In this document: in pieces, positions 1 through 63,795 of the stretch
Position numbering within the stretch: position 1 is the first letter of the stretch
Layout: each line of letters begins with the position of its first letter
NCBI GenBank assembly: GCA_019634625.1
Contig: JAHCBA010000002.1
Coordinates: 78,114 to 142,113 of the forward strand
Length of the DNA: 64,000 nt
Direction of reading: 5' to 3'
Source: Verrucomicrobiia bacterium
GTDB lineage: Bacteria; Verrucomicrobiota; Verrucomicrobiia; Limisphaerales; CAIMTB01
Translations under genes and position numbers: made by a program
Notes under the pieces: model-generated
Told to the model about the DNA's origin: nothing
The model's input: the letters and a program-made list of their open reading frames with translations, nothing else
Database searches by the model: none

Positions 1-415
1 AGCCAGGGCCTGGCCTTGCGAGAAAGCCCGCCTGGGTGAAGTGCCGATCGGTGGTCAGGGCTTCGCGCACCCGGAGCTCCCGCATGACCACGAAGCTGGT
101 GCAGTCGGTAAAGGAATAGGTCTTGTCGCGATGGCGAAAGAACAGACCCCGTGCCTTGTCGGCACGGGCCAGCGTGATGGACTCCCAGCGCAGCCGCGCA
201 CTGCCTTCCACCTGTCGCCACCACGTCTCCGCGGCATCCAGTCCCAACCGCAGGCGCAGGAGCGTCAGGGTTTCATCCACCACGTAATCTGTCGTGAGAA
301 GCTGGGCGCCCGTTTCCAGCCACGCATCGCGCACCGTTACCGCCCTGGAGTGCGAAGGGTCGGCCTCATCGGCGCACGCCACCCAACCGGCCGTATCCAC
401 GAAAAGTGCCTTCAC
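1..415 (-). CDS. vapC: PIN-domain toxin (VapC family), 3' end cut by window edge
   Basis: Not in the ORF track: it runs off the window and starts with GTG at 415-413. My minus-strand translation is VKALFVDTAGWVACADEADPSHSRAVTVRDAWLETGAQLLTTDYVVDETLTLL...FTDCTSFVVMRELRVREALTTDRHFTQAGF, with PIN-like acidic positions (FVDT, DE, TTD). The start overlaps the antitoxin stop as GTGA (412-415). Confidence 0.75.
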   Translation of the reverse strand, partial: MKALFVDTAGWVACADEADPSHSRAVTVRDAWLETGAQLLTTDYVVDETLTLLRLRLGLDAAETWWRQVEGSARLRWESITLARADKARGLFFRHRDKTYSFTDCTSFVVMRELRVREALTTDRHFTQAGFLARPGPG

Positions 416-660
416 GCCGGGTAGAGCACGGCATCATGTTCCGACGCTGATCGCCCGTCGGTCGAGCGCCCCACGGCCTTGGCCCGGTAGAGCGGATCGG
501 ACTCCAGCCCTTCCCGGTCCTCGTCGGGCGCATCCAACGGGACCACCTGGAACGCGGGCCGGCTTCGATACAGTACGGTGAATCGGGCACCGCGCCGGAC
601 CTTCGCGACAACGTCGGGCAGCGTGGCACGGAGCTCCTTGGCGTTGATCACGATACTCAT
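412..660 (-). CDS. Phd/YefM-family antitoxin
   Basis: Internal ATG of ORF 412..762. MSIVINAKELRATLPDVVAKVRRGARFTVLYRSRPAFQVVPLD is a typical prevent-host-death N-terminus. There is a 4-nt overlap with the downstream PIN gene. Confidence 0.8.
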   Translation of the reverse strand: MSIVINAKELRATLPDVVAKVRRGARFTVLYRSRPAFQVVPLDAPDEDREGLESDPLYRAKAVGRSTDGRSASEHDAVLYPA

Positions 661-807
661 GGCAAGTTCATCTTGAGTTGAACCTTTGTCCGGGTCAACA
701 CAGCTGCCTGGAGAATTTCCCAAGCCCCCCGTGTGTTCTCGTCCTCGAACCCCAAGGCACACCTTTTCGAGCGCCGCCCGGACCTCCCATTCCGCGTGGG
801 AACTGGA

Positions 808-891
808 TCTCAGGTCTCAGATCTCAAGTTTCAAGTTTCAGGTTTCAGGTTTCAGGTTTCAGGTTTCAGGTTTCAGGTTTCAGGTTTCATC
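808..891. repeat. Heptanucleotide microsatellite, about 12 units (TCTCAGG/TCTCAAG variants, then TTTCAGG x7)
   Basis: Direct reading of 808-891. All three forward frames stay open through it (ORFs 678, 686, 733 give FQVSGFR-type 7-aa repeats). Confidence 0.95.
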
Positions 892-1060
892 CTGGAGCAT
901 GGGGGTGCCAGCGCGGCGGCGTTTGCGTGGGAGATGCAGCTCCTGGGTGCACACCCGCCGGGAAAGTAGGCCCGGCGCGAGTTCCCCCTCGGCGGCGGCC
1001 GCTCCCCTGTTGGTCGTCCAGGGTCTCCAGTGACGGCCGCGGCGCGACCGTCGCTCAGCT

Positions 1061-1093
1061 GAAAGAAAATCGCCCGCGGCGACCCGCGGGCGA
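1061..1093 (-). terminator. Intrinsic terminator of the PEP-CTERM gene
   Basis: 10-bp GC stem TCGCCCGCGG (1070-1079) / CCGCGGGCGA (1084-1093) with a 4-nt loop. On the minus strand it is followed by TTTTCTTTC (1069-1061), about 40 nt after the stop at 1132. Confidence 0.7.
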
Positions 1094-1131
1094 CCTCACT
1101 TGGACTGTGGACTGGGTTCGGAAAGGTGGAC

Positions 1132-1650
1132 TTACAGGCGCAGCTTGCGGCGGAGTCCGGCGAGGCTGACCATCCCGGCGCCGAGCATCACCAGCATCGA
1201 ACCGGCATCGGGCACGGTGGGCGGATCATCGGAAGGGCAGCTCAGTCCGAAAAAGCTGATGTGCGAGATTTCCTTGTTGATCGAGCCGGAGGAGAAGGTC
1301 AGCGGGAGGTCATCGGCCGGGTACTCGTACCAGGCGATCTGGGTCGCGGCCTTCACGCCGACGAAGATCGTTCCGTAGTCGCTGAGGTCGCCGAGGAAAT
1401 CGAGGTTCGGGTAGGTGTACGACTTCGCTTCGACACCCAGGCCACCCTTCGAGGTCTTCTCGAACGTCAGTTCGTCCTTCGCGATGAAGGACAGCACGCA
1501 GTCCTCGCCGACCGTGATCAGGGTGAGGAGCTTGGTCATCTCACCGCTGGGATTGCCGCCTTGAGCCGTGGTCCCGATGAAACCGGCCCAACTGGAGGTC
1601 GCCATCGTCATCGCCGCCGCCAACACCGCCAACTTCTTGTACATCTTCAT
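1132..1650 (-). CDS. PEP-CTERM sorting-domain secreted protein
   Basis: N-terminal signal peptide MKMYKKLAVLAAAMTMATSSWA. C-terminus VPDAGSMLVMLGAGMVSLAGLRRKLRL has the PEP-like motif, a TM helix and a basic tail. Confidence 0.85.
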   Translation of the reverse strand: MKMYKKLAVLAAAMTMATSSWAGFIGTTAQGGNPSGEMTKLLTLITVGEDCVLSFIAKDELTFEKTSKGGLGVEAKSYTYPNLDFLGDLSDYGTIFVGVKAATQIAWYEYPADDLPLTFSSGSINKEISHISFFGLSCPSDDPPTVPDAGSMLVMLGAGMVSLAGLRRKLRL

Positions 1651-2568
1651 TTTACAACCTTGTGTTACTGCATTGATTCATCCAACACCCTCCATGAAGC
1701 AGACTTGATGCCAGATCGATTTGGAAGGCTGGGGCGGGTGGATAACGTGTTGGAAATCAAGGTCTGCTTGGTCCAGGGCGCGTCCCAATCGTGGAAAGTG
1801 GATGGCCGATCTGTAATCTCCACCGACACTTCAGCGCCCAAGAACGGCCAGTTTTGGGCCATGAATGAGGGGCAACGTGTTTCCGATCAAGGCCTTGCCA
1901 CTCTTGGGTTCAGATCTGTAAGGGATTCCTTCGCCGGGCAACACGTCGCTGCGTTTCCAAGGTGGGGAGGTGCAGATCCACCCAAGGGGGACCCCAATGG
2001 CAATGGACTGGCCGAGGGTGTCCAGCGAGCGGCCCGCGCTGCCCCCGGAAAAGGATGTCGGGGGGATCGCGACCGGAAGGGCACGGGCGGATTCAGTCCG
2101 TTGAAGCAGATCGAGCCATAGGGTCCGGTCCACCCGCATCACCGCGCCATCTCGCCAGCCTGTGGTTTGTCCGGTGCTTCGTCCCGTGGCGCCCCAAGGT
2201 TTCAGCAGACAGGGGGGGGGAGCCTTGCTGCGAGGGCGACCATCCCCGTCAACCGTCCTGCCGGATGCCACGACCCATTTGAATCCTTATGTTCATCGCC
2301 CTGGCCGCCTGGATAGGAGGAGTATTGTTTCGTTCTACAACGGCAACCGCAAACTGCCTTTGGTCGTGCTTCTCATAGGGCTGGGACTGTTGTATGCACA
2401 GATCGCCGGCTGGACGACTGCAGGCATTGCGGTTCTGGCCGCCATCATCTGGATCGCCAACAAGGCAGACATGCAGTGAGGATTGGAATCGTATCACCCA
2501 TGGCGCTGGTGGCACTGGGCGGGCAGGGCGACAGGGTGCGGTGAGTCTCAGCGCGAAGACGACTCTCG

Positions 2569-3378
2569 ATGAACAAGCGGGCCCATTCGGAGAATGAAAT
2601 CACCGGCACCTTGGGCGGATGGTTGAAGCCGCGTTCGTTCACTGGCTCATGCCGGCGGGGATTGCCCCGGGCGTTCACGTTGATCGAACTGCTGGTGGTC
2701 ATCGCCATCGTCGCAATACTGGCCGGCCTGCTCCTGCCGGCGATTTCACGCGCGAAGGCCAAGGCGCAATCCATCCACTGCCTGGGGAACGTCCGCCAGA
2801 TCGGATTGGGATTGCAGATGTATCTGGGCGACAACGGGAAGTATCCCCGAGCGGTCGAATCATCCATCTCGGTTGCCACGGGGGATCCGGTGGGACGTCC
2901 CTGGTACTATGCATTGCAGCCGTACACGACCCAGGTTTGGACGAATGCCCTCTACAAGTGCCCGTCGTATCGCGGCTCCACCTTTGAATCGGTCCCACGA
3001 ACGACACCTGGTCAGGGAACGCTCGTTTGGGCGCCCCACGGCGGCTACGGCTACAACGCACACGGGACAGGAGTAGAGCCGCTGGAATCGCTAACCCTGG
3101 GCCTCAGTCCGTCGATGAACATGGTGGTCTCTGAATCCCAGGTGATCGCACCGAGTGAAATGGTCGCCTTCAGCGAGGAAACAAGCGGCTATTTTATCCT
3201 GTCCGTCGGCCGTGGCAGGCCGCCCCAGTTGCACGGACGCACGGTCGTGACCGCCTTTTGCGATGGACGGGCTTCGATGGAGCCGACCCACCAACTGCAT
3301 GCCGCAACGCCCGAAGCCCGCCGGCGCTGGAACAGAGATCATCAACCTCACCCTGAGACCTGGGACGATCGACGATGA
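2569..3378 (+). CDS. Prepilin-type N-terminal cleavage/methylation domain protein with H-X9-DG motif
   Basis: Contains [23 protein letters not shown], the exact H-X9-DG motif [12 protein letters not shown], and an [11 protein letters not shown]-type tail. The start is uncertain; an in-frame TTG near 2623 is possible. Confidence 0.85.
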
Positions 3379-3402
3379 GAAGGCTCCAGGGTGGCCTTCT
3401 CC

Positions 3403-3467
3403 AGGCTCACATCTCTGATTCTGACAATTGGGAACACCCACACCCCGGCGCAGGCGCAAATGTCAAA
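3403..3467. repeat. Truncated, degenerate copy of palindromic element family A (A0)
   Basis: AGGCTCACATCTCTGATTCTGACAA resembles the family-A left arm. The core has CCCCGGCGCAGGCGCAAA. The right arm stops after TGTCAAA, where homology to the 416.. duplicate begins. Confidence 0.5.
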
Positions 3468-3485
3468 GCCGGGTGGAGCACGGCA

Positions 3486-3686
3486 TCATGTTCCGAGGCT
3501 GATCGCCCGTCGGTAGAGCGGATCGGACTCCAGCCCTTCCCGGTCCTCGTCGGGCGCATCCAACGGGACCACCTGGAACGCGGGCCGGCTTCGATACAGC
3601 ACGATGAATCGGGCACCGCGCCGGACCGGCGCGACAACTTCGGGCAGCGTGGCGCGGAGTTCCTTGGCGTTGATCACGATGCTCAT
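3486..3686 (-). pseudogene. Orphan Phd/YefM antitoxin paralogue with frameshifted C-terminus and no toxin gene
   Basis: MSIVINAKELRATLPEVVAPVRRGARFIVLYRSRPAFQVVPLDAPDEDREGLESDPLYR is near-identical to 412..660. A 26-nt deletion relative to copy 1 (copy-1 coords ~462-487) changes the tail to RAISLGT. Confidence 0.55.
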
Positions 3687-3833
3687 GGCAGGTTGATCTT
3701 GAGTTGAACCTTTGTCCGGGACAACACAGCTGCCCGGAAGCCTTCCCAAGCCCCCCGTGTGTTCTCGTCCTCGAACCCAAAGGCACACCTTTTCAAGCGC
3801 CGCCCGGACCTCCCATTCCCCGTGGGAACTGGA

Positions 3834-3945
3834 TCTCAGGTCTCAGGTCTCAGGTCTCAGGTCTCAGGTCTCAGGTCTCAGGTCTCAGGTCTCAGGTCTC
3901 AGGTTTCAGGTTTCAGGTTTCAGGTTTCAGGTCTCAGGTCTCAGG
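3834..3945. repeat. Heptanucleotide microsatellite, 16 units (TCTCAGG x10, TTTCAGG x4, TCTCAGG x2)
   Basis: Direct count of 3834-3945. All three forward frames are open (ORFs 3704, 3712, 3759 read QVSGLRS repeats). Confidence 0.95.
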
Positions 3946-4045
3946 AGGAACAGCCTTGCCCGCCGCTCCCGAATCGCCTATCCCGATTCCCATCCCGCTC
4001 CAATCCCCGGTCCTCTGGTGCGACCCGGTCCCTTCCCCTTTCCCC

Positions 4046-6811
4046 ATGGCCCCCACCCCGACCCCTCTGCCCTCGGCGGAAATCCCTTTCCACTGGCGCC
4101 GCCCCCTTCACGTTCTGCCGGTCCCGACCGCCCTCGCGTCCCTGCTCCTCGTCTTCCTGGGCACACTCTCCGTTCCGGCCTTCGTCCTGCCCCCGGCCGG
4201 CGATCCCCCTCTCACCTTCGAGCGCGACATCCGGCCCATCCTCAAGGCGCACTGCTTCGACTGTCATGGCGAAGGCGATCGGCCCCGCGGCGAACTCGAT
4301 CTGCGCCTCCGCCGCTTCATGCTCGCCGGCGGCGACTCCGGACCCGCTCTGGTTCCCGGCCAGCCTGACGCCAGCCCCCTCTTCGAACTCGTCCGCTCCG
4401 GCCGCATGCCCAAGCGCGACGCCAAGCTGACTCCGCCCGAACTCGACCTCCTCCGCCGCTGGATCGAACAGGGCGCCCCCACCGCCCGGCCCGAGCCGGA
4501 CTCCCTCGCCGAGGGAATGCAGATCACCCCTGAGGAACGGGAACACTGGGCCTTCCAACCGCCCCGTCGTCCGCCCGTTCCCGACACCGCCGACCCCTCC
4601 CTGGACCATCCGATCGACGCCTTCCTCGCCGCCCGCGCCGCACCCCTCGGAGTCACCCTCTCCGAACCCGCCCCCCACGGCATCCTCGTCCGACGCGCCT
4701 TCCTGAATCTCTGGGGCCTGCCCCCTGGTCCATCGGACCGCGCCGCCCTCGACCTCGATCCGTCCCCCGACGCCTACGCCCGGCTCCTGGATCGCCTGCT
4801 CGACTCCCCCCGCTACGGCGAACGCTGGGCCCGTCATTGGCTCGACATCGCCGGCTATGCCGATTCCGACGGCTACACCAACGACGACACCCCGCGCCCC
4901 TACGCCTGGAAGTACCGCGACTACGTCATCCGCAGCTTCAACGACGACCTCCCCTTCGACCGGTTCCTCCTCGAACAGTTCGCCGGGGACGAACTGGCCC
5001 TCGCACACCACCCCGACCTTTCCACGGCCGCCCGGGATCCCGCCACCCGCGACTGGCTGGTGGCCACGGCGTTCCTTCGCATGGCCGCCGATGGCACCGG
5101 CAGCGGCGCCGTGGACCAGGACACCGCACGCAATCAGGTCCTCGCCGACACCCTCAAGATCGTCTCCACCTCCCTGCTCGGCCTGTCCGTCGGCTGCGCC
5201 CAGTGCCACGATCACCGCTACGATCCCATCCCCCAACTCGACTACTACCGTCTCCGGGCAGTCTTCGAACCCGCCTACGACTGGAAGAACTGGCGCCGAC
5301 CCTCCGAACGCCTCGTCTCCCTCCATACCCCCGAGGAACGCGCCCTGGCCGCCGCCGTCGAGCAGGAAGCCGCCGCCCTCTCCGACGAAAGAAGCTCCAA
5401 ACAGGCCGCGTTCCTCGACGACGCCCTCCGCAAACATCTCGAGAAATTCGAACCGCCCCTGCGCGATGACCTCTGGACTGCCTTCAAGACCTCCGCCGAC
5501 CAGCGCACCCCCGAACAACGCCAGCTCCTTGCCGCCCATCCCAGCGTCCACATCCATCCGGGCGTCCTCTACCAGTACGATCCCCAGGCCGCCGAACAGC
5601 TCAAGGCCCTCGATGCCCGCATCGCCGAAGTCCGCGCCCGCCGCCCCCCCGAGGACTTCATCAGCGTCCTCACCGAACCCGCCGGCGATCCTCCCGTCAC
5701 CCACCTCTTCCATCGCGGCGATCCTCGTCAGCCCCGTCAACCCGTCGCCCCCGGCACCCTCGCCGTCCTCCTTCCCGAAGGCGCCTCCCCCGACCTCGTC
5801 CTGCCCGTCGGCGGTGCGTCCACCTCCGGACGTCGGCTCGCCCTGGCCCGCTGGCTCACCCGGCCCGATCACCCCCTCGTCCCCCGCGTCCTCGTCAATC
5901 GCGTCTGGATGCACCACTTCGGACGCGGCCTCGTCGAGACCCCCGCCGACTTCGGCCTCCAGGGTGCCCCGCCGTCCCATCCCGAACTCCTCGACTGGCT
6001 CGCCTCGGTCTTCGTCGCCCCGGTCAGCGACGATCCCGCCAACCCCGGACTCGGCTGGAGCCTGAAACGCCTCCACCGCCTCATCATGACCTCCCGCGCC
6101 TGGCGCCAGTCGTCGGCCCGCCGCCCGGACATGGAGGCCATCGATCCCGAAAACCGCCTGCTCTGGCGCCAGTCCGTCCGCCGGCTCGATGCCGAAGCCA
6201 TCCGCGACGGTTTCCTCGCCGTGAGCGGTGCCTGCCACGACCATCCCTTCGGCCCGCCCGTGCCCGTTCGCGAGGACGCCGTCGGCCAGATCGTCGTCGG
6301 CATCGACCGCAAACAGGGCGACAACAAGATGCCCGTCGATGTCCCCATGGGCGCCGAGGAGTTCCGCCGCAGCATCTATCTCGAAGTCCGCCGCAGCCGG
6401 CCCCTCGCCTTCCTCACCGCCTTCGACGCCCCCGTCATGGAGGTCAACTGCGAGCTGCGCCCGGTCTCCACCGTGGCCCCGCAATCCCTCATGCTCCTCA
6501 ACAGCGACTTCGCCCTCCAACAGGCCCGCCTCTTCGCCGAACGCCTCGCCCGCGAGGCCGGCCCGCTCCCCGAGGCCCGGGTCGAACGCGCCTTCCAGCT
6601 CGCCTACGCACGTCCGCCGTCCCCCACCGAATTCCGGGCCGCCCTCGACTTCCTCGAACGCCACGTCGCCACCCTCGCCGCGCAACCGCCCCCCGACGCC
6701 CCGCCCGCTCCCCATCCCGACCCCGCCGCCGCCGTTCCCCCTCTCCAACGCGCCCTCGAAAGCCTCTGCCAGGTCCTCCTCGGCTCGAACGAATTCCTCT
6801 ACCTCGACTGA
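4046..6811 (+). CDS. DUF1549/DUF1553 protein with N-terminal planctomycete-type cytochrome c motif (PSD1-like)
   Basis: In-frame ATG at 4046 followed by the signal-like stretch LASLLLVFLGTLSVPAFV. Also CFDCHG, GERWARHWLD, CAQCHDHRYDPI and NRVWMHHFGRGLV. Immediately followed by a DUF1501 partner. Confidence 0.9.
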   Translation: MAPTPTPLPSAEIPFHWRRPLHVLPVPTALASLLLVFLGTLSVPAFVLPPAGDPPLTFERDIRPILKAHCFDCHGEGDRPRGELDLRLRRFMLAGGDSGPALVPGQPDASPLFELVRSGRMPKRDAKLTPPELDLLRRWIEQGAPTARPEPDSLAEGMQITPEEREHWAFQPPRRPPVPDTADPSLDHPIDAFLAARAAPLGVTLSEPAPHGILVRRAFLNLWGLPPGPSDRAALDLDPSPDAYARLLDRLLDSPRYGERWARHWLDIAGYADSDGYTNDDTPRPYAWKYRDYVIRSFNDDLPFDRFLLEQFAGDELALAHHPDLSTAARDPATRDWLVATAFLRMAADGTGSGAVDQDTARNQVLADTLKIVSTSLLGLSVGCAQCHDHRYDPIPQLDYYRLRAVFEPAYDWKNWRRPSERLVSLHTPEERALAAAVEQEAAALSDERSSKQAAFLDDALRKHLEKFEPPLRDDLWTAFKTSADQRTPEQRQLLAAHPSVHIHPGVLYQYDPQAAEQLKALDARIAEVRARRPPEDFISVLTEPAGDPPVTHLFHRGDPRQPRQPVAPGTLAVLLPEGASPDLVLPVGGASTSGRRLALARWLTRPDHPLVPRVLVNRVWMHHFGRGLVETPADFGLQGAPPSHPELLDWLASVFVAPVSDDPANPGLGWSLKRLHRLIMTSRAWRQSSARRPDMEAIDPENRLLWRQSVRRLDAEAIRDGFLAVSGACHDHPFGPPVPVREDAVGQIVVGIDRKQGDNKMPVDVPMGAEEFRRSIYLEVRRSRPLAFLTAFDAPVMEVNCELRPVSTVAPQSLMLLNSDFALQQARLFAERLAREAGPLPEARVERAFQLAYARPPSPTEFRAALDFLERHVATLAAQPPPDAPPAPHPDPAAAVPPLQRALESLCQVLLGSNEFLYLD

Positions 6812-8274: not shown

Positions 8275-8294
8275 GAACGCCCACCCTTCCCTCG

Positions 8295-8401
8295 GTGCAT
8301 CCCCGACGTGTGGGTGCCGAGGCAACCCATCGGAGGGACGAGCTCCGCGAGTCCTCAATCCAACGCTCCACACTCCTGCGGCCTCGCGGAGCTCGTCCCG
8401 G
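8295..8401 (-). mobile_element. Family-B nested-hairpin MITE-like element, copy B1 (right part divergent)
   Basis: GTGCATCCCCGACGTGTGGGTGCCGAGG....GGAGGGACGAGCTCCGCGAGTCCTCAATCCAACGCTCCACACTCCTGCGGCCTCGCGGAGCTCGTCCC aligns by eye with the reverse complement of copies B2/B5. Confidence 0.6.
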
Positions 8402-8576
8402 GCGCATCTCAACCTTCCTGATCTAAACCGCCCAAGCCATCCCTCGTGGTTCTCGTACTCAGCCCGAAGGGCGGTACTCGTCCTCGTCCTCGAACCCGAA
8501 GGCACACCCTCTTGGAGCGTTGCCTTATGAGTTCGATCCTGCTCGGACCCCCATTCCGCGTGTGAACGGACGAGGG

Positions 8577-8610
8577 GAGATTAAGATTAAGATTAAGATT
8601 AAGATTAAGA
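8577..8610. repeat. Hexanucleotide microsatellite (GATTAA x5)
   Basis: Direct reading. It is preceded by the same conserved flank (TCGTCCTCGAACCC.AAGGCACACC...CCCATTCCGCGTG) that precedes the two heptamer arrays. Confidence 0.9.
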
Positions 8611-8885
8611 GTACGCGGACGAGGGCTGCTGCAAGAACGTTAGAAGCACCCACTCAAGAGAAGTCTGGATGGGGCGCACCAAGGCGGGTCACCGCGGACC
8701 TCCCACTCAGCACAGACATCCTGCGAGCCTCACCCTCCATCCGGTCCCAGAAACCCGCAGGGTTTCCAGAGATTAGCCGGGGGTCGGGCCCGGCTCCGCG
8801 GGTTCGACCCCCGGACAGAAATCCCACCCCGCCCACGACCCCGCCAGGGGTCGCAGAACTCCTCCATTGGGACGGAGGCAATCAC

Positions 8886-8983
8886 GCTCGACCGTCCCGC
8901 CTCCGGCCACATCACCGCCCGAAGACCCATTCAATTCCCCCGGCGAGATTCCCTTCCGGACGCCCGAGTTGCTTCACCGCCCA
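8886..8983 (+). repeat. Family-C ~100-bp intergenic repeat, copy C1
   Basis: GCTCGACCGTCCCGCCTCCGGCCACATCACCGCCCGAAGAC...TCCCCCGGCGAGATTCCCTT...CTTCACCGCCC matches 21653-21748 with scattered substitutions. Both copies lie upstream of plus-strand genes. Confidence 0.6.
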
Positions 8984-9027
8984 CCTCCCTTGACCGCGCA
9001 AAGCGCACCGTACCATCCTTCGCTCTC

Positions 9028-9574: not shown

Positions 9575-11704
9575 TCACTCCTGCAACCCGTAGCGGCGCA
9601 TCAGCTCCGGACTCATCCCTGGCCCGTCCCCCCCGAAGCGCTGCATCAGCTCCGGACTCATCGCCGCCCCGTCCCGCGGCGTGCCCGGTCGGGCGGGCCG
9701 CACCGGCAGGGGTGGGATGTCCCCGTGCGACGGTACGTCCGCCGGTTCCCCCTCGGCCACCGCTTCGGCCCGCAACGCTTCTCTCAGGGATTCCGCGACG
9801 TTCCCGCGCTGGATGATCAACCGGCGATTCCGCGGCCCGAGCGGCAGTGGCATGGTCCGCCGATACGCGTTGCCACCGCCCGACGACGACGGCGCATCCA
9901 AGGTCACCGCGATCTGGCCCACCTGGAGGTCCCGGTCGATTCCGTGCTGCTCCAGCAGCAACCGCTCCGCCGGACTGAGCCTGGCCTCAAGATCGATCTG
10001 CTGCCGCGTCAGTCCCAGGGCCCGCCCCTCGGCCATCGATCGCGATGCCCATCCCGCCATACCGGCCACTCCGCCCCACAATGCCACCAGAAGTCCGAGA
10101 CACGCGGCTCCCTGCCGTGGCAATCGCCTCCCGGCGTCGCCCGGCCGTACGAAGTTGCGCCACGCGAAGAACACTCCCAGTGCCGCCGGCACTGCCCCCG
10201 TCACCAGCATTAATTGGGGCACCCTGTCCCTCCATCCCCTACCCCGCCTCGCCATCGCCTCCCATGCGGCAGCGTCCAGACGCTCCGCCCGCATCCGCCA
10301 CGCCTCCGGATCCGCGGATCGTTCGATCATCAGCAGCCCGGTCGCTTCCTGGGCGGCTGCGGACCCGAACCGGGCCGTCAGGAAGGCCGCCGCGACGACG
10401 AAGGCCAGGACTCCCATGGCCGCAATCACCGCCCGCACCGGGTGGCCGGTTCCCGACGACATCAGCAGCGCCGTCACAAACACCACCCCCATGCCAATCG
10501 TCACGGCAACCACGTGCCGATGGATGCCGGTTTGACCGTCCCTCGCGGACGCCATCCAGGAAGCGGCCAGAATCACGACCAGCACTGGCAACGCGGCAAT
10601 CGCCATCTTGATCCACCACTGCGATCCGGGCGCAACCGGTTGGAGGCGCTGGCCGTCCGTCACGCCCAGACGTCGTTCCTCGGCGAACGCCGTCGCTCCC
10701 GCGAGCAGCACCACCAGTCCGAGCAGCGATCCCCCTCCCACGGCGAGCGCCTGCCCCATGTCAGATCCCGCGTACGCCAATCCTCCCGGCATCGCCAGCG
10801 CCACGCCCGCCAGGAGCAACCACCAGGTCGCCGCCTGCAGTCGAAGTTCCTTCCGCGCCAGCGTCGCCCACACCGGTGCCCTGCCGCCGTCTCCGATCCC
10901 GGCCAGCGTCCGAAGCCGCGGCAACCCGAGGAGCCCTTCCCCCGTCTCGCCTTCATCCTTCGCCTCCATCCGCCTCCAGCGGCGCCACGCCCCCAAACCC
11001 GTCCCCACGACATAGAGACCGAGCAGCAGCACCGGGACCAAGGTCTCGGAACCGAGCAAGGCAACCACGACGGCGAGGCCCAGCATTGGAATCGCCAGCG
11101 AGAAGACCAGGCCCGATAGCAACCCCCGGGTCAGAAGGGTCCAGTACGGCGTCGTGAACCCGGCCAACACGGCACTCATCCCCATCCCGACAACCAACCC
11201 CGCCCAGGCAGCGCCGAGGATTTCGGCCGTCCCCGCCGCCACCGCCCAATGCACCCCCAGTCCGACCGCCAGCACCGTCATCTTGGTCCGCCACCATGCC
11301 GCCCTGTCCACCGGCTGAGCCAGCATGCCCGCCAGGGTCCGTTGCTGGAACTCAGTCCCGAACGGGATCGCCGCCATCAACGCGCAGGTCGCCGCAAACA
11401 GCCAGGGCAGCAGCGTCATCGCCTCCTCGCCCAGCACCAGGTAGGGCATCTGCATCGCGAACAGGGACGCCAGCCAGGCCGGACGCAATTGATCCACCTC
11501 CTTGCGAACCGCCCACGGCAGCCGGACGACCAGCGCCGGCAATCCGAAGGCCAGCACGATCCCGACGGTCAAGAGCGACGCCCAACCGCCCCCGACCCGT
11601 TCCCCACCGGCCAGCACCGGCATCACCGGCAACAACAATGCCAGCCACCACGACGACGGCCGTACCAGTCCGGGCAGAGCAAGCGAATGGTTCATAACGT
11701 TCAT
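9575..11704 (-). CDS. ABC-2-type permease-like polytopic membrane protein (paralogue 2) with soluble C-terminal region
   Basis: 709 aa with many TM segments. Paralogous to 11701..13812 (shared N-terminal pattern and ...SPAE...RG.L.E.LREALR.E tail). ATGA overlap with the upstream gene (11701-11704). Confidence 0.7.
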   Translation of the reverse strand: MNVMNHSLALPGLVRPSSWWLALLLPVMPVLAGGERVGGGWASLLTVGIVLAFGLPALVVRLPWAVRKEVDQLRPAWLASLFAMQMPYLVLGEEAMTLLPWLFAATCALMAAIPFGTEFQQRTLAGMLAQPVDRAAWWRTKMTVLAVGLGVHWAVAAGTAEILGAAWAGLVVGMGMSAVLAGFTTPYWTLLTRGLLSGLVFSLAIPMLGLAVVVALLGSETLVPVLLLGLYVVGTGLGAWRRWRRMEAKDEGETGEGLLGLPRLRTLAGIGDGGRAPVWATLARKELRLQAATWWLLLAGVALAMPGGLAYAGSDMGQALAVGGGSLLGLVVLLAGATAFAEERRLGVTDGQRLQPVAPGSQWWIKMAIAALPVLVVILAASWMASARDGQTGIHRHVVAVTIGMGVVFVTALLMSSGTGHPVRAVIAAMGVLAFVVAAAFLTARFGSAAAQEATGLLMIERSADPEAWRMRAERLDAAAWEAMARRGRGWRDRVPQLMLVTGAVPAALGVFFAWRNFVRPGDAGRRLPRQGAACLGLLVALWGGVAGMAGWASRSMAEGRALGLTRQQIDLEARLSPAERLLLEQHGIDRDLQVGQIAVTLDAPSSSGGGNAYRRTMPLPLGPRNRRLIIQRGNVAESLREALRAEAVAEGEPADVPSHGDIPPLPVRPARPGTPRDGAAMSPELMQRFGGDGPGMSPELMRRYGLQE

Positions 11705-16739: not shown

Positions 16740-16897
16740 GTGCATTCCGGAGTTGTGGGTGAGGAGGGAACTCCGCTGAGGGGCGCTTCGGAGGGCCGAG
16801 TTCCACGAGGCCGCAACGGTGTGGAGCGTTGGGTTGAGGACTCGCAGAGCTCGTCCCTCCGATTCGCTTCCTTCTCACCCACAATTCCGGGATGCAC
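16740..16897 (+). mobile_element. Family-B nested-hairpin MITE-like element, full copy B2
   Basis: Outer inverted repeats are GTGCATTCCGGAGTTGTGGGTGAGGAGG / CCTTCTCACCCACAATTCCGGGATGCAC. The inner hairpin is CGGAGGGCCGAGTTCCACGAGGCC...GGACTCGCAGAGCTCGTCCCTCCG. Flanked by the direct repeat CTTCCAGCCCG (16729-16739 and 16900-16910). Confidence 0.7.
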
Positions 16898-17050
16898 GGC
16901 TTCCAGCCCGATTTGAGCGAAACCTCTTGCATTGCCTCGCCGAATTATGTTCATCAGTCTCCTGATCCGTTTGATCGTCGGCGTTCCCGGGCATTTTTCG
17001 ACATCACCCTCGCCCCCTCCCCCCGAAGCCCCTCCTCAATCATCCCCCCA

Positions 17051-20205: not shown

Positions 20206-21390
20206 ATGAGCCCGCCGGCGGCTACCGGCCGCGCCCGACTCCTGGACGTGCTGATTGTCGGGGCGGGCCCGGCAGGTTGCGCCACGGCCCTGGCCTTGCT
20301 TCGGGCGGGCGTTCAGGACGTCGCCCTCGTGACGCCGCCCGCTTCAACCGCCTGGCGACTCAGCGAGTCGGCCACGCCCGATGTGCCCGCCCTCCTCGCG
20401 CAATTGGGAGTCCGGATGCCTCCGGGGCACCACCCGTATCTGGGCAACCTCTCGGCCTGGGGAGAACCGATGAGACAGGACGACTTCGTCCGTCGCGGCC
20501 ATCCCCCCGGCTGGTTGGTGGACCGGAAGCGGTTCGACGACCAGTTGCGGGAAGCCACCGTCGCCGCGGGATCAGAACTCCTCCAGCCCTTCCGATTGCG
20601 GGAGGCAGTGCGCATCAGGAACGGCTGGAGCGTGACGTTGCAGCCGGTCGCTTCCACGCGTCCACCGGGCCCGCCTGTCACGCTGCAAACCCGTTTGCTG
20701 GTGGATGCCTCGGGACGCCGCGCCGCTCTCGCGCGAGGCCAGCTCGGGGCCAGACGTCAACGCATCGATGATCAGGTGGCCCTTGCCGCCCGAATTCCGG
20801 GGGCCCGACCGGCACGGATCGACGACTTGCTGGCCGGCCGCGTTCTGGTCGAAGCGGTGCCCTGCGGGTGGTGGTACGCCTCCGCCCCGCCGGATGGCCC
20901 GATGATGCTAAGCCTGATGACCGACATGGATCTGGCCCGGAATCTGCGGACACCCACTGCATGGCGGGAAGCCCTGGACCACACCCAGGTTCTCCAAGCC
21001 CTCGGCGTCCCGCCATCCGACACCGGTCAGGCACCCCCCGCGATCCGGACGTTCGCCGCGCAAAGCGGTTGTCTGGATCGTATCGCCGGGCCCGGCTGGC
21101 TCGCCGTCGGGGACGCCCTGATGAGCCTCGACCCACTCACTTCATCGGGCCTGTCCGGCGCGTTGCGCGATGGCATCGCGGCTGCGTCCGAGGTGTTGCT
21201 GCCCTGGCTCGAAGGCGCCTCACCGGGCACCGCCGGAAGGGCCTGGGGCAGACGTGCCAACCATGTCTGGCAGCGCTTTCTGGTCGAGCGTCGAGCCCGC
21301 TACGCCATGGTGTCCGACTGGCGCACGTCCCGGTACTGGCGGCGACGCCAGAGCGAATACGAGGCCAGTGCATCCCGGATTCTTCGGTAG
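20206..21390 (+). CDS. LodB-like FAD-dependent oxidoreductase (cofactor-maturation flavoprotein)
   Basis: LDVLIVGAGPAGCATALAL is an FAD GxGxxG fold, with a halogenase/monooxygenase-like GD motif in WLAVGDALMSLDPLTSSG. Positioned directly after the LodA-like gene. The last ~7 codons and the stop lie in element B3. Confidence 0.75.
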   Translation: MSPPAATGRARLLDVLIVGAGPAGCATALALLRAGVQDVALVTPPASTAWRLSESATPDVPALLAQLGVRMPPGHHPYLGNLSAWGEPMRQDDFVRRGHPPGWLVDRKRFDDQLREATVAAGSELLQPFRLREAVRIRNGWSVTLQPVASTRPPGPPVTLQTRLLVDASGRRAALARGQLGARRQRIDDQVALAARIPGARPARIDDLLAGRVLVEAVPCGWWYASAPPDGPMMLSLMTDMDLARNLRTPTAWREALDHTQVLQALGVPPSDTGQAPPAIRTFAAQSGCLDRIAGPGWLAVGDALMSLDPLTSSGLSGALRDGIAAASEVLLPWLEGASPGTAGRAWGRRANHVWQRFLVERRARYAMVSDWRTSRYWRRRQSEYEASASRILR

Positions 21391-21492
21391 AGTTGCGAAC
21401 TTCGCGAAGCGTCGCTTCGGAGGGCCGGGTGCCACGAGGCCGCAACCGTGTGGAGCGTTGGGTTGAGGACTCGTGGAACCCGGCCCTCCGAA
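21368..21492 (+). mobile_element. Family-B element, copy B3 (second outer arm missing or degenerate)
   Basis: GTGCATCCCGGATTCTTCGG...GCGAACTTCGCGAAGCG...CTTCGGAGGGCCGGGTGCCACGAGGCCGCAACCGTGTGGAGCGTTGGGTTGAGGACTCGTGGAACCCGGCCCTCCGAAG. Confidence 0.6.
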
Positions 21493-21652
21493 GTAAAGCG
21501 GAGAGGTGGGATCGGATGGACCGTTGGGTGTACACGCTTCAGCGTGAGCCTCCCAAATCCGCCCCGACACGCCAAAGCGTCTGACGTTTGGCCATTTGAC
21601 TGGCGAACCGGCGGGCCCCAAAGCGGCCCATCGGTTGACGCAGGGAAATCAG

Positions 21653-21748
21653 GCTCGACCGTCCCGCCTCCCGCCACACCACCACCCGAAGACTCGTTCA
21701 GCTCCCCCGGCGAAGTTCCCTTGCGAATGCCCGGGTTCCTTCACCCCC
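21653..21748 (+). repeat. Family-C intergenic repeat, copy C2
   Basis: GCTCGACCGTCCCGCCTCCCGCCACACCACCACCCGAAGAC...TCCCCCGGCGAAGTTCCCTT...CTTCACCCCCC. Followed by a small GCGTCTTC tandem at ~21758-21777. Confidence 0.6.
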
Positions 21749-21965
21749 CGCTTCCTTTGCGTCTTCGCGTCTTCGCGTGAGCACCAGGCGTCGCGTTGCA
21801 CCCTTCGATGAAACCGCCTCGCCGCATCCTCACGCCACGACCCAAAGACGCCAGGAATGCGCCGCCGCGCCGTAAGCCAAGGGCATCGCGGGATTGAGTT
21901 CCGCGTGCCGCCGTTCAAGCTCTTCCCGGCTGGCAGGCATCGCCCATCGCCCATCGCCCATCGTC

Positions 21966-22286
21966 ATGCGCCCCTTGGATCTACAGGTTGTCGGCAACGA
22001 ACTGGCCATCCGCTGGGAGGATGGCACGGAGAGCTTCATCCCCCTGGAAACCCTGCGCCGCCACTGCCCGTGTGCGAGCTGCGGCGGGGAACGCGACATC
22101 TTCGGCAACGTCTATCGCGGTCCCGAGCGACCCCTGACCCCGGCCGGGATGACCCTCGTCCGCCTGGAACCAGTGGGCGGCTACGCCGTGCAGCCGATCT
22201 GGGGCGACGGCCACAACACCGGCCTGTTCAGCTACGAGTACCTCCGTCGCCTGGGCGCCATGGCGTCATCGGGGTCAGATCTCTGA
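21966..22286 (+). CDS. DUF971 (gamma-butyrobetaine hydroxylase-like N-terminal domain) protein
   Basis: Internal ATG of ORF 21894. LAIRWEDGTESFIPLETLRRHCPCASCGGE and YAVQPIWGDGHNTGLFSYEYLR are typical DUF971 blocks. The last 5 codons and the stop come from element A1. Confidence 0.8.
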   Translation: MRPLDLQVVGNELAIRWEDGTESFIPLETLRRHCPCASCGGERDIFGNVYRGPERPLTPAGMTLVRLEPVGGYAVQPIWGDGHNTGLFSYEYLRRLGAMASSGSDL

Positions 22287-22351
22287 ATTTGACAATCTTG
22301 CCCCGCAGGGCGCGGTGCGACGGCCAATGTCAAAATCAGGGATCTGACCCC
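22271..22351. repeat. Family-A ~82-bp palindromic element, copy A1
   Basis: Left arm GGGGTCAGATCTCTGAATTTGACA, right arm TGTCAAAATCAGGGATCTGACCCC, core ..CCCCGCAGGGCGCGGTGCGACGGCC.. Confidence 0.85.
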
Positions 22352-22424
22352 GGGAGGCTTTCGTCCTTCCGCCGCAGCGACCCGCCATGCTAGCGTTGTT
22401 AGCACAACGGAGGACGCCATCGCC

Positions 22425-22661
22425 ATGCCACAGCTTCTGGTCAGACAGATTGAGGAGAAGGTCGTTCGAAAGCTCAAGGAGCGGGCCGGAAGGCATGGGG
22501 TCTCGATGGAGGAGGAGCACCGCCGAATCCTGCGCGAGGCCCTGCTCGGCTCGTCGGTGAAGGGCCGGTCGTTCAAGGACCACCTGCTCGCCATGCCCAA
22601 CGTGGGGGATGACGAGGACTTTTCCCGCGGGCCCCAGATCGAGCGGCCCGTTGAGCTATGA
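22425..22661 (+). CDS. FitA/VapB-type (RHH, plasmid-stability-like) antitoxin
   Basis: MPQLLVRQIEEKVVRKLKERAGRHGVSMEEEHRRILREAL is the Arc/RHH-like antitoxin pattern. There is a 4-nt overlap with the PIN gene. Confidence 0.8.
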   Translation: MPQLLVRQIEEKVVRKLKERAGRHGVSMEEEHRRILREALLGSSVKGRSFKDHLLAMPNVGDDEDFSRGPQIERPVEL

Positions 22662-23092
22662 GCGGCTTTCTGCTTGATACGAACCTCCTGAGCGAACTGC
22701 GCAAGGAGCAGCGTTGCGATGCGGGAGTGCGTCGATGGGTCGAAGGCACCTCCGCCGAAGCGATGTTTGTCAGTGTCGTGGTGCTCGGCGAGATCAGGCG
22801 GGGGGTCGAGCGAATCCGCCTGCGCGACCTCAAGCAGGCTCGGGCATTGGAGAAGTGGCTTCATGGCATCCCCACGGTGTTTTCGGACCGCGTGTTGCAC
22901 GTGGACGAGCGCGTCGCGGACCAGTGGGGACGCCTCGGCTCGCGCCAACCTGTACCGCCCGTCGACGCACTGTTGGCTGCGACGGCCCTGGTTCACGATC
23001 TGACGGTCGTCACCCGGGATGCGGATGGTTTTCGCAACACCGGGGCACGGGTGCTGAATCCGTTCACGTCAGGCTCAGATCTCCGAATTTGA
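22658..23092 (+). CDS. vapC: PIN-domain toxin (VapC/FitB type)
   Basis: FLLDTNLLSELRK, VVLGEIRRGV and DALLAATALVHDLTVVTRDADGF. The C-terminal SGSDLRI and the stop are encoded by element A2. Confidence 0.85.
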   Translation: MSGFLLDTNLLSELRKEQRCDAGVRRWVEGTSAEAMFVSVVVLGEIRRGVERIRLRDLKQARALEKWLHGIPTVFSDRVLHVDERVADQWGRLGSRQPVPPVDALLAATALVHDLTVVTRDADGFRNTGARVLNPFTSGSDLRI

Positions 23093-23152
23093 CCATCGGG
23101 ACCCGCAGGGCGCGGCGGGACGGCGAAATGTCAAATTCAGAGACTTGACCCC
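23071..23152. repeat. Family-A palindromic element, copy A2
   Basis: AGGCTCAGATCTCCGAATTTGACC ... core CCCGCAGGGCGCGGCGGGACGGCG ... TGTCAAATTCAGAGACTTGACCCC. Confidence 0.85.
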
Positions 23153-23205
23153 GAGAGGGGAAGATTTGTCCGGTTTGGCGCGCGACCGGCAGTATTCCGG
23201 GCGAG

Positions 23206-25755: not shown

Positions 25756-25831
25756 TTCTGCAGGCGCAGGCCAAGCCCCTGAATCCGTATCCGCGTCCCC
25801 GCGGCTCTGGCAGCGCGCATGTCCAGCTCCG

Positions 25832-25983
25832 GTGCATCCCGGAGTCGTGGTTGAGGAGGCAGCGAATTGGAGGGACGAACTCCGCGAGTTCTGACCCCAA
25901 CGCTCCCCACCGTTGCGGCCTCGTGGAACTCGGCGCTCCCCGCCGACGCTTCAAGAAGCCGGCACCTCTCCCCAAGTATCCAC
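25832..25983 (-). mobile_element. Family-B element, full copy B4 (inverted orientation)
   Basis: By eye it aligns end to end with the reverse complement of B5: GTGCATCCCGGAGTCGTGGTTGAGGAGGCAGCGAATTGGAGGGACGAACTCCGCGAG...GCGGCCTCGTGGAACTCGGCGCTCC...CACCTCTCCCCAAGTATCCAC. Confidence 0.7.
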
Positions 25984-26041
25984 TGAAAATGACGCCCTTT
26001 TGATGATGCCTTGACATCATTATTAGGTGATGCACGGTGGC

Positions 26042-26308
26042 ATGGTGCGTACCACCCTCACCCTCGATCCGGAAGTCGCCGACCGGTTGAAGCAGGAAGC
26101 CGCCTTGGGAAAGCGCTCTTTCAAGGTCATCGTCAATGAAGCGCTGCGAAAGGGGCTGGGCATGGAGGCGCCGCGGCGCGCGCCTCGATTCCGCGTCCAG
26201 CCCCACTCCTCCCGCCTGCAACCCGGCGTGGATCCGACCCGCCTGAATCAACTCGTGGATGAACTCGATGTGGAGGCCTTCGTGGCGAAGCAAGGACCCC
26301 GGACATGA
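26042..26308 (+). CDS. RHH/CopG-like antitoxin of a VapBC pair
   Basis: MVRTTLTLDPEVADRLKQEAALGKRSFKVIVNEALRKGL. The ORF-track start is 26027 and I prefer the ATG at 26042. ATGA-type overlap with the PIN gene. Confidence 0.75.
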   Translation: MVRTTLTLDPEVADRLKQEAALGKRSFKVIVNEALRKGLGMEAPRRAPRFRVQPHSSRLQPGVDPTRLNQLVDELDVEAFVAKQGPRT

Positions 26309-26742
26309 TCATTCCCGACGTCAATCTCCTCATCTACGCGTACAACGATCAGGCTCCGCAACACCTGCCGGCGAAGGAATGGTGGGAGAATCTGCTGAAC
26401 GGTCAGAGGCCGGTCGGGCTCCCTTGGATCACCATCAGCGGTTTCATCCGGCTCATCACTCATCCCCGAATCCTGGTTACCCCCCTTGATGTTCCGTCCA
26501 CCGTCCGCCACGTACGCGCGTGGCTGGCCCAACCCCCGGTCCGGGTCGTGTACCCCGGCTCCCGTTTCGAGCGACTATTCATGGACTATCTGATCCAGCT
26601 CGGAACGGCCGCCAATCTGACAACCGACGCCCAACTCGCCGCGCTTGCCGTGGAACATCAGGCCGAACTGCACAGCTCCGACCATGATTTCGCGCGATTC
26701 GACGGTCTTCGTTGGCTGAACCCATTGAAGGCCGGGGCCTGA
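26305..26742 (+). CDS. vapC: PIN-domain toxin (VapC family)
   Basis: MIIPDVNLLIYAYN (PIN Asp), ISGFIRLITHP, TTDAQLAALAVEHQAELHSSDHDFARF. Confidence 0.85.
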   Translation: MIIPDVNLLIYAYNDQAPQHLPAKEWWENLLNGQRPVGLPWITISGFIRLITHPRILVTPLDVPSTVRHVRAWLAQPPVRVVYPGSRFERLFMDYLIQLGTAANLTTDAQLAALAVEHQAELHSSDHDFARFDGLRWLNPLKAGA

Positions 26743-26751
26743 CTGATCATC

Positions 26752-26833
26752 GGGGTCAGATCTCTGAATTTGACATTTGCGAGCCTTCAGATCTGCCAGG
26801 AAGGCAAAATGTCAAATTCAGAGATCTGACCCC
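26752..26833. repeat. Family-A palindromic element, copy A3 (near-perfect long hairpin)
   Basis: GGGGTCAGATCTCTGAATTTGACATTTGCGAGCCTTC-AGATCTGCCAG-GAAGGCAAAATGTCAAATTCAGAGATCTGACCCC. Starts 10 nt after the vapC stop. Confidence 0.9.
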
Positions 26834-26840
26834 GACGCCT

Positions 26841-27539
26841 TCACGGCCAGGACCAGACCCAATCCATGGAACGTAAGGGGACGTCGGGGGAGTGCTCCAT
26901 CGAACCGTTGTCGTCCCGGGCATCGATGGCGAGAGACCATAGCCGGAACCGATCATTGGACTCCCGGGCATACCGCAAGGGCCGGCCGTCGATGGGATCC
27001 AAGGGTACGGAAGCGAACCCGGTGGGGACGAGGGCTTCGAGGCGCTCCGGATAGGTCCCTTCGGCAAGGCGATGGCGTTCGAGGACACACGCGGTCATGG
27101 CGAGACGGGCCTGGGCCTGGGCGCGGAGGGCCTGGGCCGGCGCCCTGGCCAGACTGCTGATGTAGGGTTCCTTCCCCGGACTGAGGGCCGCCCGATACAG
27201 CCGGTAACGGGAAGAGGCGGAAGGCGCCGGGGGAGGCCAGGAAGCGATGAGGGAATGCTGTTGATCCGCGGGGGTCGTCTCCAGTTGACGCAATGCTCCC
27301 GAGAAAGCGGCGGCGCTGGCATACAACCAACCCCTTGGAGCCGAGGAGAGGTAGAGGTCACTCAGAGGGGCGTTGGCAGTCCCTTGACGGTCAGGACTGG
27401 GCTCGAACCGCCCGACCATCGTGCGTCGTCCCTCCGCAGAATCGAGAATGGTGCGAACGACTTCCAAGAAGCCACAGCGTTCGCCCGCGACAGCGCGTTG
27501 CAGGCCGGGATGCAGGTCCACATTTCTGAATCGAACCAA
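26841..27539 (-). CDS. Hypothetical protein, probably 5'-truncated
   Basis: 232-aa ORF with a TTG start and no signal peptide. The C-terminal LDPIDGRPLRYARESNDRFRLWSLAIDARDDNG resembles tails of secreted pseudopilin-like proteins from this phylum. Bracketed by A3 and half-copy A4. Confidence 0.45.
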   Translation of the reverse strand: MVRFRNVDLHPGLQRAVAGERCGFLEVVRTILDSAEGRRTMVGRFEPSPDRQGTANAPLSDLYLSSAPRGWLYASAAAFSGALRQLETTPADQQHSLIASWPPPAPSASSRYRLYRAALSPGKEPYISSLARAPAQALRAQAQARLAMTACVLERHRLAEGTYPERLEALVPTGFASVPLDPIDGRPLRYARESNDRFRLWSLAIDARDDNGSMEHSPDVPLRSMDWVWSWP

Positions 27540-27560
27540 TGGGAAGGGCTGGACCGTCGC

Positions 27561-27595
27561 GCGAAGGCAAATGTCAAATTCAGAGATCTGACCCC
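27561..27595. repeat. Family-A element, right-half copy A4
   Basis: GCGAAGGCAAATGTCAAATTCAGAGATCTGACCCC matches the right half of A3. No left arm is present. Confidence 0.75.
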
Positions 27596-27605
27596 GGTGA
27601 GTCGC

Positions 27606-33939: not shown

Positions 33940-33957
33940 GCGTTGCAGGGTGGGCGT

Positions 33958-41033: not shown

Positions 41034-41090
41034 GCCCGCCAATGGTAACAGCAGGGGTCTGACCCCAGGACCCGGTGGATCCCGGGGGCA

Positions 41091-61601: not shown

Positions 61602-61760
61602 GTGCATCCCGAAGAGGTGGGGAGAGGTGCGAACTTCGCGAAGCGTCATCTCGGAGGGCCGAGTTCCACGAGGCCGCAACAGTGTGGAGCGTTGGGTTGA
61701 GGACTCGCAGAGCTCGTCCCTCCGATTCGCTGCCTCCTCACCCACAACTCCGGGATGCAC
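61602..61760 (+). mobile_element. Family-B element, full copy B5
   Basis: GTGCATCCCGAAGAGGTGGGGAGAGGTGCGAACTTCGCGAAGCG...CGGAGGGCCGAGTTCCACGAGGCCGCAACAGTGTGGAGCGTTGGGTTGAGGACTCGCAGAGCTCGTCCCTCCG...CCTCCTCACCCACAACTCCGGGATGCAC. ATCCCGTG lies on both sides (61592-61599 and 61764-61771). Confidence 0.7.
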
Positions 61761-63778: not shown

Positions 63779-63795
63779 CTTTCCGCAGCGTTGCC

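Follow-up and report, generated by a model that had tools for sequence, protein, structure and literature searches.

A toxin-less, apparently decaying antitoxin gene copy beside a truncated palindromic repeat in a Verrucomicrobiia genome

The decay of chromosomal toxin-antitoxin (TA) modules has been described as a process in which the toxin is inactivated first and the antitoxin is lost later (PMC13617665), and the decaying ccdO157 locus of E. coli is associated with a repetitive extragenic palindromic (REP) element (PMC3184786). A comparable locus has been analysed here in a 64-kb stretch of DNA (the window) from a metagenome-assembled genome (MAG) of a Verrucomicrobiia bacterium. The antitoxin gene of this locus occurs twice: copy 1 (1-890) belongs to an antitoxin-vapC module, and copy 2 (3468-3945) is toxin-less and abuts a truncated copy (3398-3467) of a palindromic repeat, designated family A. 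The comparison of the two copies with 94 homologues indicates with high confidence that copy 2 is a derived, toxin-less and decaying pseudogene, and the copy 2 locus is probably without function at present. We lean, with some reserve, towards copy 2 being the eroding remnant of a second antitoxin-vapC module, the vapC of which would have been lost by one illegitimate deletion from the family-A element; the single-deletion route, taken on its own, is about evenly balanced. The locus resembles the toxin-first decay of ccdO157 and of the Photorhabdus TA repertoire (PMC13617665, PMC3184786) in the order of loss, in the small deletions and truncations, and in the presence of a repeat, as with the REP element at the ccd locus. 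It differs from these cases in that the toxin gene is removed cleanly up to its start codon, the deletion would end in a hairpin repeat and an intact paralogue lies 3 kb away. With this paralogue as an internal reference, copy 2 would represent a clean and well-polarised case of toxin-first TA decay; the decay itself is ordinary, and the novelty of the locus is confined to whether family A acts on TA cassettes.

Alignment of the two copies revealed that 3468-3833 duplicates 416-807 in the same orientation with 94.3% identity (345/366), as the initial annotation had claimed, and that the similarity runs on through 7-nt tandem arrays to ~3945 and ~890, respectively. Identity amounts to 41/43 between 416-458 and 3468-3510 and to 304/323 between 485-807 and 3511-3833; the 64-nt promoter/operator segment (56/64 identical) is the most diverged portion of the duplication. 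The two copies stand in direct orientation at a spacing of 3052 nt, and beyond the arrays their similarity is random (27/70). At the left boundary, 416 = 3468 is the last matching base, and the next 24 positions leftward match at 5 only. As position 416 adjoins the GTG start (413-415) of vapC, the homology halts exactly there, which also agrees with the annotation. The junction 3467|3468 displays no microhomology, no vapC remnant was detected near copy 2 by tblastn, and no sequence like 891-3400 could be traced to the right of 3945. In a relative (~69% protein identity), the N_methyl gene, which borders the truncated family-A element in the window, is followed after a gap of 144 nt by the PSD1 gene; this shows no more than that the block of family A, antitoxin, family-C repeat and array is extra DNA in the window lineage. 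Relatives were retrieved from genome and metagenome collections and show identities of at most 78%.

The truncated family-A element (3398-3467, plus strand) still has its left arm and loop together with 7-12 nt from the start of the right arm (GCAAATGTCAAA), whereas the last ~20 nt are gone. An nhmmer profile, built without the candidate from four window copies (22266-22356, 23066-23157, 26747-26838 and 27529-27603), matches 3401-3468 with an E-value of 9.9e-7 over model positions 4-71 of 91. When two copies from L001, a contig of the related MAG RA.bin27, were added to the profile, the E-value became 3.8e-8 over positions 4-73 of 91. The likeness of 3403-3467 to family A, on the statistical support of which the annotation had let its reading depend, is borne out at these values, and so is the identification of the bases TGTCAAA at the junction as the beginning of a family-A right arm whose remainder is missing. 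The hairpin fold of the truncated element is lost (z +0.2).

Copy 1 resembles type II TA modules with a PIN toxin and a Phd/YefM-like antitoxin, as evident from the PIN domain of the toxin, the antitoxin gene placed upstream and translationally coupled, the GTGA overlap of antitoxin stop and vapC start at 412-415, the palindromic operator over the promoter, the N-terminal DNA-binding-type domain and the conserved tail of the antitoxin. The vapC gene (1-415, minus strand) encodes a PIN-domain toxin of 138 aa, which scores 26.6 bits (E 1e-5) against Pfam PF01850, the cut-off being 23.6 bits. This gene had been described as truncated by the window edge, which is not meaningfully so: its stop codon consists of window base 1 and two bases beyond the left edge, and since the identical database protein P0241 ("VapC family toxin" of a Verrucomicrobiae MAG, 100% identity) is exactly 138 aa long, vapC is complete but for these two bases. 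Its homologues have 135-144 aa, and their N-terminus MKxLFVDTAGW aligns to VKALFVDTAGW of copy 1. A candidate family-A arm starting at the window edge (minus strand ...CCTGGCT), which would give the C-terminus ...GSDL* as in the two genes whose ends fall in family-A arms, was ruled out by the 138-aa database protein, from the length of which base 1 must be the first base of the stop codon.

The antitoxin gene of copy 1 (412-660, minus strand) is intact and encodes 82 aa, with an N-terminal domain that is weakly Phd/YefM-like and a C-terminal tail that is conserved; vapC is adjacent to the antitoxin in 90 of 95 homologue loci. Its promoter/operator (666-698, minus strand) consists of the -35 element TTGACC (693-698) and the palindromic operator GTTCAACTCAAGATGAAC (666-683), and the corresponding motif TTGAC(A/C)...GTTCAACTTAAGATGAAC is kept upstream of most homologues. 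This comparative motif was used in place of a consensus promoter scan, by which the TA promoters were not flagged. A family-C repeat (701-815; nhmmer E 4e-34 with the C profile) and a 7-nt tandem array (810-889, 11.4 units by TRF) lie beyond the promoter as part of the duplicated block. The family-C core, CGTCCTCGTCCTCGAACCCNAAGGCACACC ... CCCATTCCGCGTGKGAAC, recurs in the window at 701-889, 3727-3945 and 8447-8610, and outside it in L130 (8680-8830) and L013 (~4120-4180). Each copy precedes a different array (GGTTTCA x11, GGTCTCA x16 and AGATTA x5.5, with a GATTAC-type array in a relative); as these arrays sit in intergenic regions upstream of genes, they could be hypervariable.

The antitoxin gene of copy 2 carries several lesions. 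Copy-1 bases 459-484 are absent from it, and the resulting frameshift yields an open reading frame (ORF) of 66 aa (3486-3686, minus strand, ending RRAISLGT), which diverges after residue 59, as compared to the 82-aa protein of copy 1. The 26-nt gap is flanked by imperfect 10-nt direct repeats, CGGTCGAGCG (459-468) and CGGTAGAGCG (485-494 = 3511-3520), of which the one at 3511-3520 is that left after the deletion; a loss of this kind is typical of replication slippage. The annotation had correctly recognised this deletion and the frameshift of the C-terminal tail, and the ancestral tail in fact persists out of frame as residues 65-82 at 3467-3520 (minus strand; 17/18 identical by tblastn). Among the antitoxin homologues (n = 94, gathered from genome and metagenome contigs), 87 have a length of 82 aa and the same tail. 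At the near-invariant tail sites A60, G64, S66, D68, G69, H75, D76, L79 and Y80, copy 1 has 9/9 of the residues and copy 2 none.

The 59 N-terminal residues of copy 2 are still open and 56/59 identical to those of copy 1, the changes being D16E, K20P and T28I. Position 20 is R or K in 85/94 homologues and never P, and position 28 is T in 90/94 and never I. The -35 element TTGAC and the operator GTTCA...TGAAC, which are kept in copy 1 and most homologues, are both mutated in the degenerate promoter/operator of copy 2 (3692-3724, minus strand): the -35 element reads TTGTCC (3719-3724), and the right half of the operator (3692-3709) reads TCAAC instead of TGAAC. A family-C repeat (3727-3841) and an array of 16 units of 7 nt (3834-3945) close the duplicated block on its right side. 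Since all changes at conserved sites fall on copy 2, copy 1 is regarded as ancestral and copy 2 as derived. Further, in contrast to type II modules, copy 2 is toxin-less, its tail is frameshifted and its promoter is damaged; the antitoxin does not stand upstream of a coupled toxin gene, and the absence of this pairing makes copy 2 a remnant rather than a module. The term "surviving antitoxin" of the initial annotation is therefore better replaced by pseudogene, in view of K20P, T28I, the damage to the -35 element and operator and the loss of the tail.

The persistence of 59 open and highly similar N-terminal residues might also be taken to mean that the 66-aa protein is a selected orphan antitoxin, for instance an anti-addiction module or a repressor of the copy-1 promoter, roles that are discussed in the literature for such orphans. 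We consider this highly improbable, because the near-invariant tail is missing, two sites conserved in 85-90/94 homologues carry P20 and I28, the -35 element and the operator are both hit, and orphans are rare in the family (at most 2/92 loci).

The assignment of the antitoxin to the Phd type is tentative. The tail is near-invariant across the 94 homologues, almost always paired with a PIN gene, and may, as the label would predict, be the toxin-binding or neutralising part. For the N-terminal domain, the matches to the family models are sub-threshold: 19.6 bits with PF02604 (cut-off 29.8 bits) and 17.8 bits with TIGR01552 (cut-off 20.8 bits). A profile alignment to P1 Phd is in register but weak (E 0.005, probability 7%), and profile comparison gave no match to YefM. 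A profile search of the PDB by sequence gave no relative, and the single-sequence AlphaFold model (pLDDT 50) was too poor for a fold search.

Family A is represented by 5-6 copies in the window and two in L001, and the intact copies lie 0-7 nt from a stop codon or overlap one. A1 (22266-22356, plus strand) is intact, overlaps the stop codon of a DUF971/GBBH-like gene and stands 68 nt upstream of fitA. The cassette between A1 and A2 (22425-23092, plus strand) consists of a FitA-like ribbon-helix-helix (RHH) antitoxin gene and a PIN-type vapC (Pfam FitA-like_RHH 5.6e-16, PIN 1.5e-16). A2 (23066-23157, plus strand), also intact, supplies with its left arm the final residues of this vapC (SGSDLRI) and its stop codon. 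A3 (26747-26838, plus strand), with perfect 29-nt arms, follows a second cassette (26027-26742, plus strand) of RHH antitoxin and PIN-type vapC genes, detected with Pfam, and lies between convergent stop codons, 5 nt past that of vapC and 3 nt before that of a minus-strand ORF. A4 (27513-27600, to 27603; plus strand), the left arm of which is degenerate while the right arm is intact, is 6 nt from the stop codon of a metallophosphoesterase gene; a weak trace of the family occurs at 41040-41068. A 232-aa ORF without Pfam match (26841-27539, minus strand) is placed like a cassette between A3 and A4, and the degenerate left arm of A4 overlaps its start region.

In the window, each of the two other vapC genes has family A after its stop codon. 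The orthologous vapC of L001 (74% identical) likewise has a family-A element 8 nt past its stop codon, and a second, inverted element upstream of the antitoxin; this cassette occupies 9595-10510, and its layout of A, antitoxin, vapC and A is identical in 10 independent contigs. Hence family A follows 3/3 of the other vapC genes examined.

These positions form the basis of the scheme towards which we lean. The second copy would once have held vapC, in convergent orientation to the N_methyl gene and with a family-A hairpin a few bases past the vapC stop codon. A single illegitimate deletion, ~440-450 nt long, would have taken vapC together with the proximal part of the family-A arm, deletion end-points being favoured at hairpins. 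Once the toxin was lost, or was kept in check by the antitoxin of copy 1, the second antitoxin and its promoter would have been freed from selection and would now be decaying. As in the initial annotation, an intact family-A element is predicted by this scheme just to the left of coordinate 1. The geometry needed at copy 2 is that of A3, which sits between convergent stop codons. The truncated element begins 20 nt from the stop codon of N_methyl, and every intact copy is nearer to its stop codon, which suggests that the missing end was the stop-proximal one. Toxin loss has also occurred independently in relatives: L061 (690-1200) carries an intact antitoxin gene and a vapC that has lost a large internal segment, and in L067 (10240-10760) an intact antitoxin gene is not followed by vapC.

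Several observations weigh against this scheme. For a former vapC at copy 2 the indications are indirect, and the junction is devoid of microhomology. The family-A element may have belonged from the outset to the 3' end of N_methyl rather than to vapC, and the loop of the truncated element is, relative to the lost vapC, opposite in orientation to family A after the other three vapC genes; at other gene ends, as with A4 and the upstream copy of L001, its orientation is not fixed. Most vapC orthologues elsewhere are without family A, which marks it as a lineage-specific repeat and not as part of the module, and the orthologues of the fitA-vapC cassette in L132 and L133 are also without it. The N-terminal coding regions of the two antitoxin copies differ by just 8 substitutions (~4 synonymous and ~4 non-synonymous), so that relaxed selection is argued from the identity of the changed sites and not from a rate test. 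Moreover, the window comes from a MAG, and the junction rests on its assembly.

The lack of microhomology at the junction also speaks for a history in which vapC was never present at the second locus and a fragment comprising the antitoxin 3' end, promoter, family-C repeat and array was copied into a broken family-A hairpin behind N_methyl. Break repair, template switching or homology-facilitated illegitimate recombination, anchored at one end in a pre-existing family-C repeat and array and joined illegitimately within family A at the other, could account for such a partial copy, the antitoxin of which would decay for want of a partner. A homologous anchor is plausible, as family C and its array are dispersed, with a third copy at 8447-8610 and like units in relatives; because these are dispersed repeats, a partial copy anchored in them and joined at a broken family-A element would give the same picture as the deletion. 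The truncated element, further, has the orientation towards N_methyl, the gene upstream of it, that A1 has towards its own upstream gene, and the promoter side of copy 1 is without family A, which implies that this element is not an obligatory part of the cassette. However, the remainder of the right arm does not reappear beyond the block: no family-A match occurs at 3946-4045, so a simple insertion is insufficient and an extra loss has to be assumed. The distance of 20 nt from the N_methyl stop codon, beyond that of any intact copy, and the presence of family A after every other vapC examined also speak against the partial copy, which we regard as a tentative and rather unlikely alternative.

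The arrangement of the copies as direct repeats 3052 nt apart agrees, in addition, with a tandem duplication of 416-3467, which would create a novel junction (3467|416') of the form expected and would need a second deletion, from 891' onward and including the rest of family A, to give the same picture. The right end of the homology falls at a microsatellite array, a plausible deletion end-point. This route nevertheless demands two illegitimate events, the second of which would have to stop precisely where the array ends, and no trace of 891-3400 sequence is found past 3945; we hold it to be very unlikely.

A chimera of similar repeats or strains, joined by the metagenome assembler, would likewise place a truncated repeat beside an antitoxin fragment. 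The MAG source, the richness of the region in repeats and the breaking of same-sample short-read contigs at repeats of this kind, as with L131, the end of which lies inside A4, make an artefact conceivable. Chimeras, however, form inside shared k-mers and this junction shares no sequence; both flanks would need to be chimeric, and over 5842 nt in another part of the window a separately made assembly of this sample agrees at 100% identity. An artefact is accordingly given little credence, at a level with the orphan antitoxin. The claim of a single deletion running from inside family A across the toxin gene thus holds as regards the toxin-less state of copy 2 and the non-homologous join into the family-A right arm, but not as regards its exclusiveness, since other scenarios fit equally well; the interpretation given in the initial annotation is, as a whole, partly supported.

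As a sequence family, family A comprises elements of ~90 nt (85-95), non-coding, with inverted arms of 25-29 nt (consensus GGGGTCAGATCTCTGAATTTGACA) and a loop of 28-45 nt. Strong hairpins (z -7 to -11) are predicted for 22266-22356, 26747-26838 and both L001 elements; folding is weaker at 23066-23157 (z -2.3), and the degenerate 27513-27603 has no fold (z +1.5). Five stem positions are changed on both sides with pairing kept between the window genome and L001, and by this covariation the hairpin is maintained. The left arm donates C-terminal residues and a stop codon twice, in the same frame, to the DUF971 gene (...SSGSDL*, 22266-22286) and to vapC (...TSGSDLRI*, 23066-23092). In the collections searched, family A was seen in the window genome and one related MAG lineage only. 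When viral contigs were scanned with the arm motif, a single match appeared, which lies within a coding sequence and is put down to chance.

From its sequence features, family A is best described as an undescribed palindromic element resembling miniature transposable elements with inverted repeats (MITEs) or REP sequences. It has the MITE traits of inverted terminal arms, small size, absence of coding capacity and several dispersed copies, and shares with the Correia/NEMIS, ERIC and REP/REPIN repeats its length of ~90 nt, inverted arms, strong hairpin and dispersal at gene 3' ends. Unlike these, it shows no consistent target-site duplication around A1-A4 (TAA...TAA flanks one L001 copy), no GTAG tag, no Rfam match at gathering score in the window (generic hairpin and miRNA matches being far below threshold) and no cognate transposase or RAYT gene in the window. 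REP/REPIN sequences are defined by a 20-40-nt palindrome tagged with GTAG or CGTC at one end and by a RAYT gene in the genome (PMC3733652). An assignment of family A to them was rejected on account of its length, its 28-45-nt loop, the absence of GTAG, the presence of CGTC beside some copies only and the absence of RAYT from the window. The gene content of the window is that of an ordinary chromosome, e.g. purD, glyA, rho and trpE, and no transposase, RAYT, integrase or tyrosine recombinase was found among its genes.

The association of family A with TA cassettes recalls two described systems. In Microcystis aeruginosa PCC 7806, a ParE/ParD cassette next to MaOC1 has at either side a copy of one repeat that itself includes inverted repeats (PMC7935541), as the fitA-vapC cassette has A1 and A2 and the L001 cassette its own pair; the cases differ in repeat sequence, phylum and TA families, and the L001 pair is inverted, not direct. 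The TA cassettes of chromosomal integrons, bounded by attC sites, are similarly short and promoter-bearing and are parted by imperfect palindromes of similar size. The ends of family A (TCRGGGTCAG...CTGACCCCGA), however, are without AAC/GTT cores (RYYYAAC/GTTRRRY), the window has no integrase or other tyrosine recombinase, and the cassettes are not in one orientation, so that a classification as attC was discarded.

Of 39 intergenic gaps, 7 border on a TA module, and these contain four of the six family-A hits (P ~0.01-0.02, in a post hoc test). Family A is thus enriched beside TA modules, at the borders of three unrelated vapC cassettes of the window as well as of the orthologous L001 cassette. 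The pairs flanking a cassette are the closest mutual relatives, with loop identities of 0.79 and 0.86, as compared to 0.51-0.66 for other pairs; the pair of the window (22266-23157) is in direct orientation, that of L001 is inverted. Such features would be in keeping with family-A hairpins being boundaries, or integration or recombination sites, of small mobile TA cassettes with Phd-like, FitA-like or CopG-like antitoxins, which would undergo insertion, duplication and excision at these elements, the truncated element then being the scar of an aberrant toxin excision, though we consider this doubtful. If true genome-wide, the link between family A and TA cassettes would point to repeat-mediated moving or deleting of such cassettes in Verrucomicrobia. 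The fitA-vapC orthologue in the metagenome contig L132 (VapC 86% identical) is flanked in a like position by a different repeat, the 23-nt direct repeat AAAGACCGGTCCCTTTGGATCCA, at ~9580-9605 and ~10435-10460.

Other repeats were recorded in the window. Family B is a dispersed repeat of ~147 nt with an internal 33-nt hairpin (CTTCGGAGGGCCGGGT...ACCCGGCCCTCCGAAG) and without Rfam match; its six copies in the 64 kb lie at 8293-8399 (minus strand), 16757-16904, 21386-21533, 25830-25974 (minus strand), 61620-61767 and 63778-63859, and the vapB-vapC cassette at 26027 has one of them directly upstream. A dispersed repeat of 116 nt (8877-8992 and 21644-21759, 83-86% identical) occurs in each case ~100-480 nt downstream of family B, and the same-sample short-read contig L131 starts inside its copy at 21644-21759. 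The AT-rich segment 37070-37457, upstream of the anthranilate synthase gene, contains a 164-nt unit twice (96% identical) and several 17-nt motifs, TCAAATAGTCAGGCATT and variants, which may represent a cluster of binding sites. At 32443-35376, two paralogues of the GFO/IDH/MocA oxidoreductases are adjacent, with 71-90% DNA identity over blocks spaced 1515-1518 nt.

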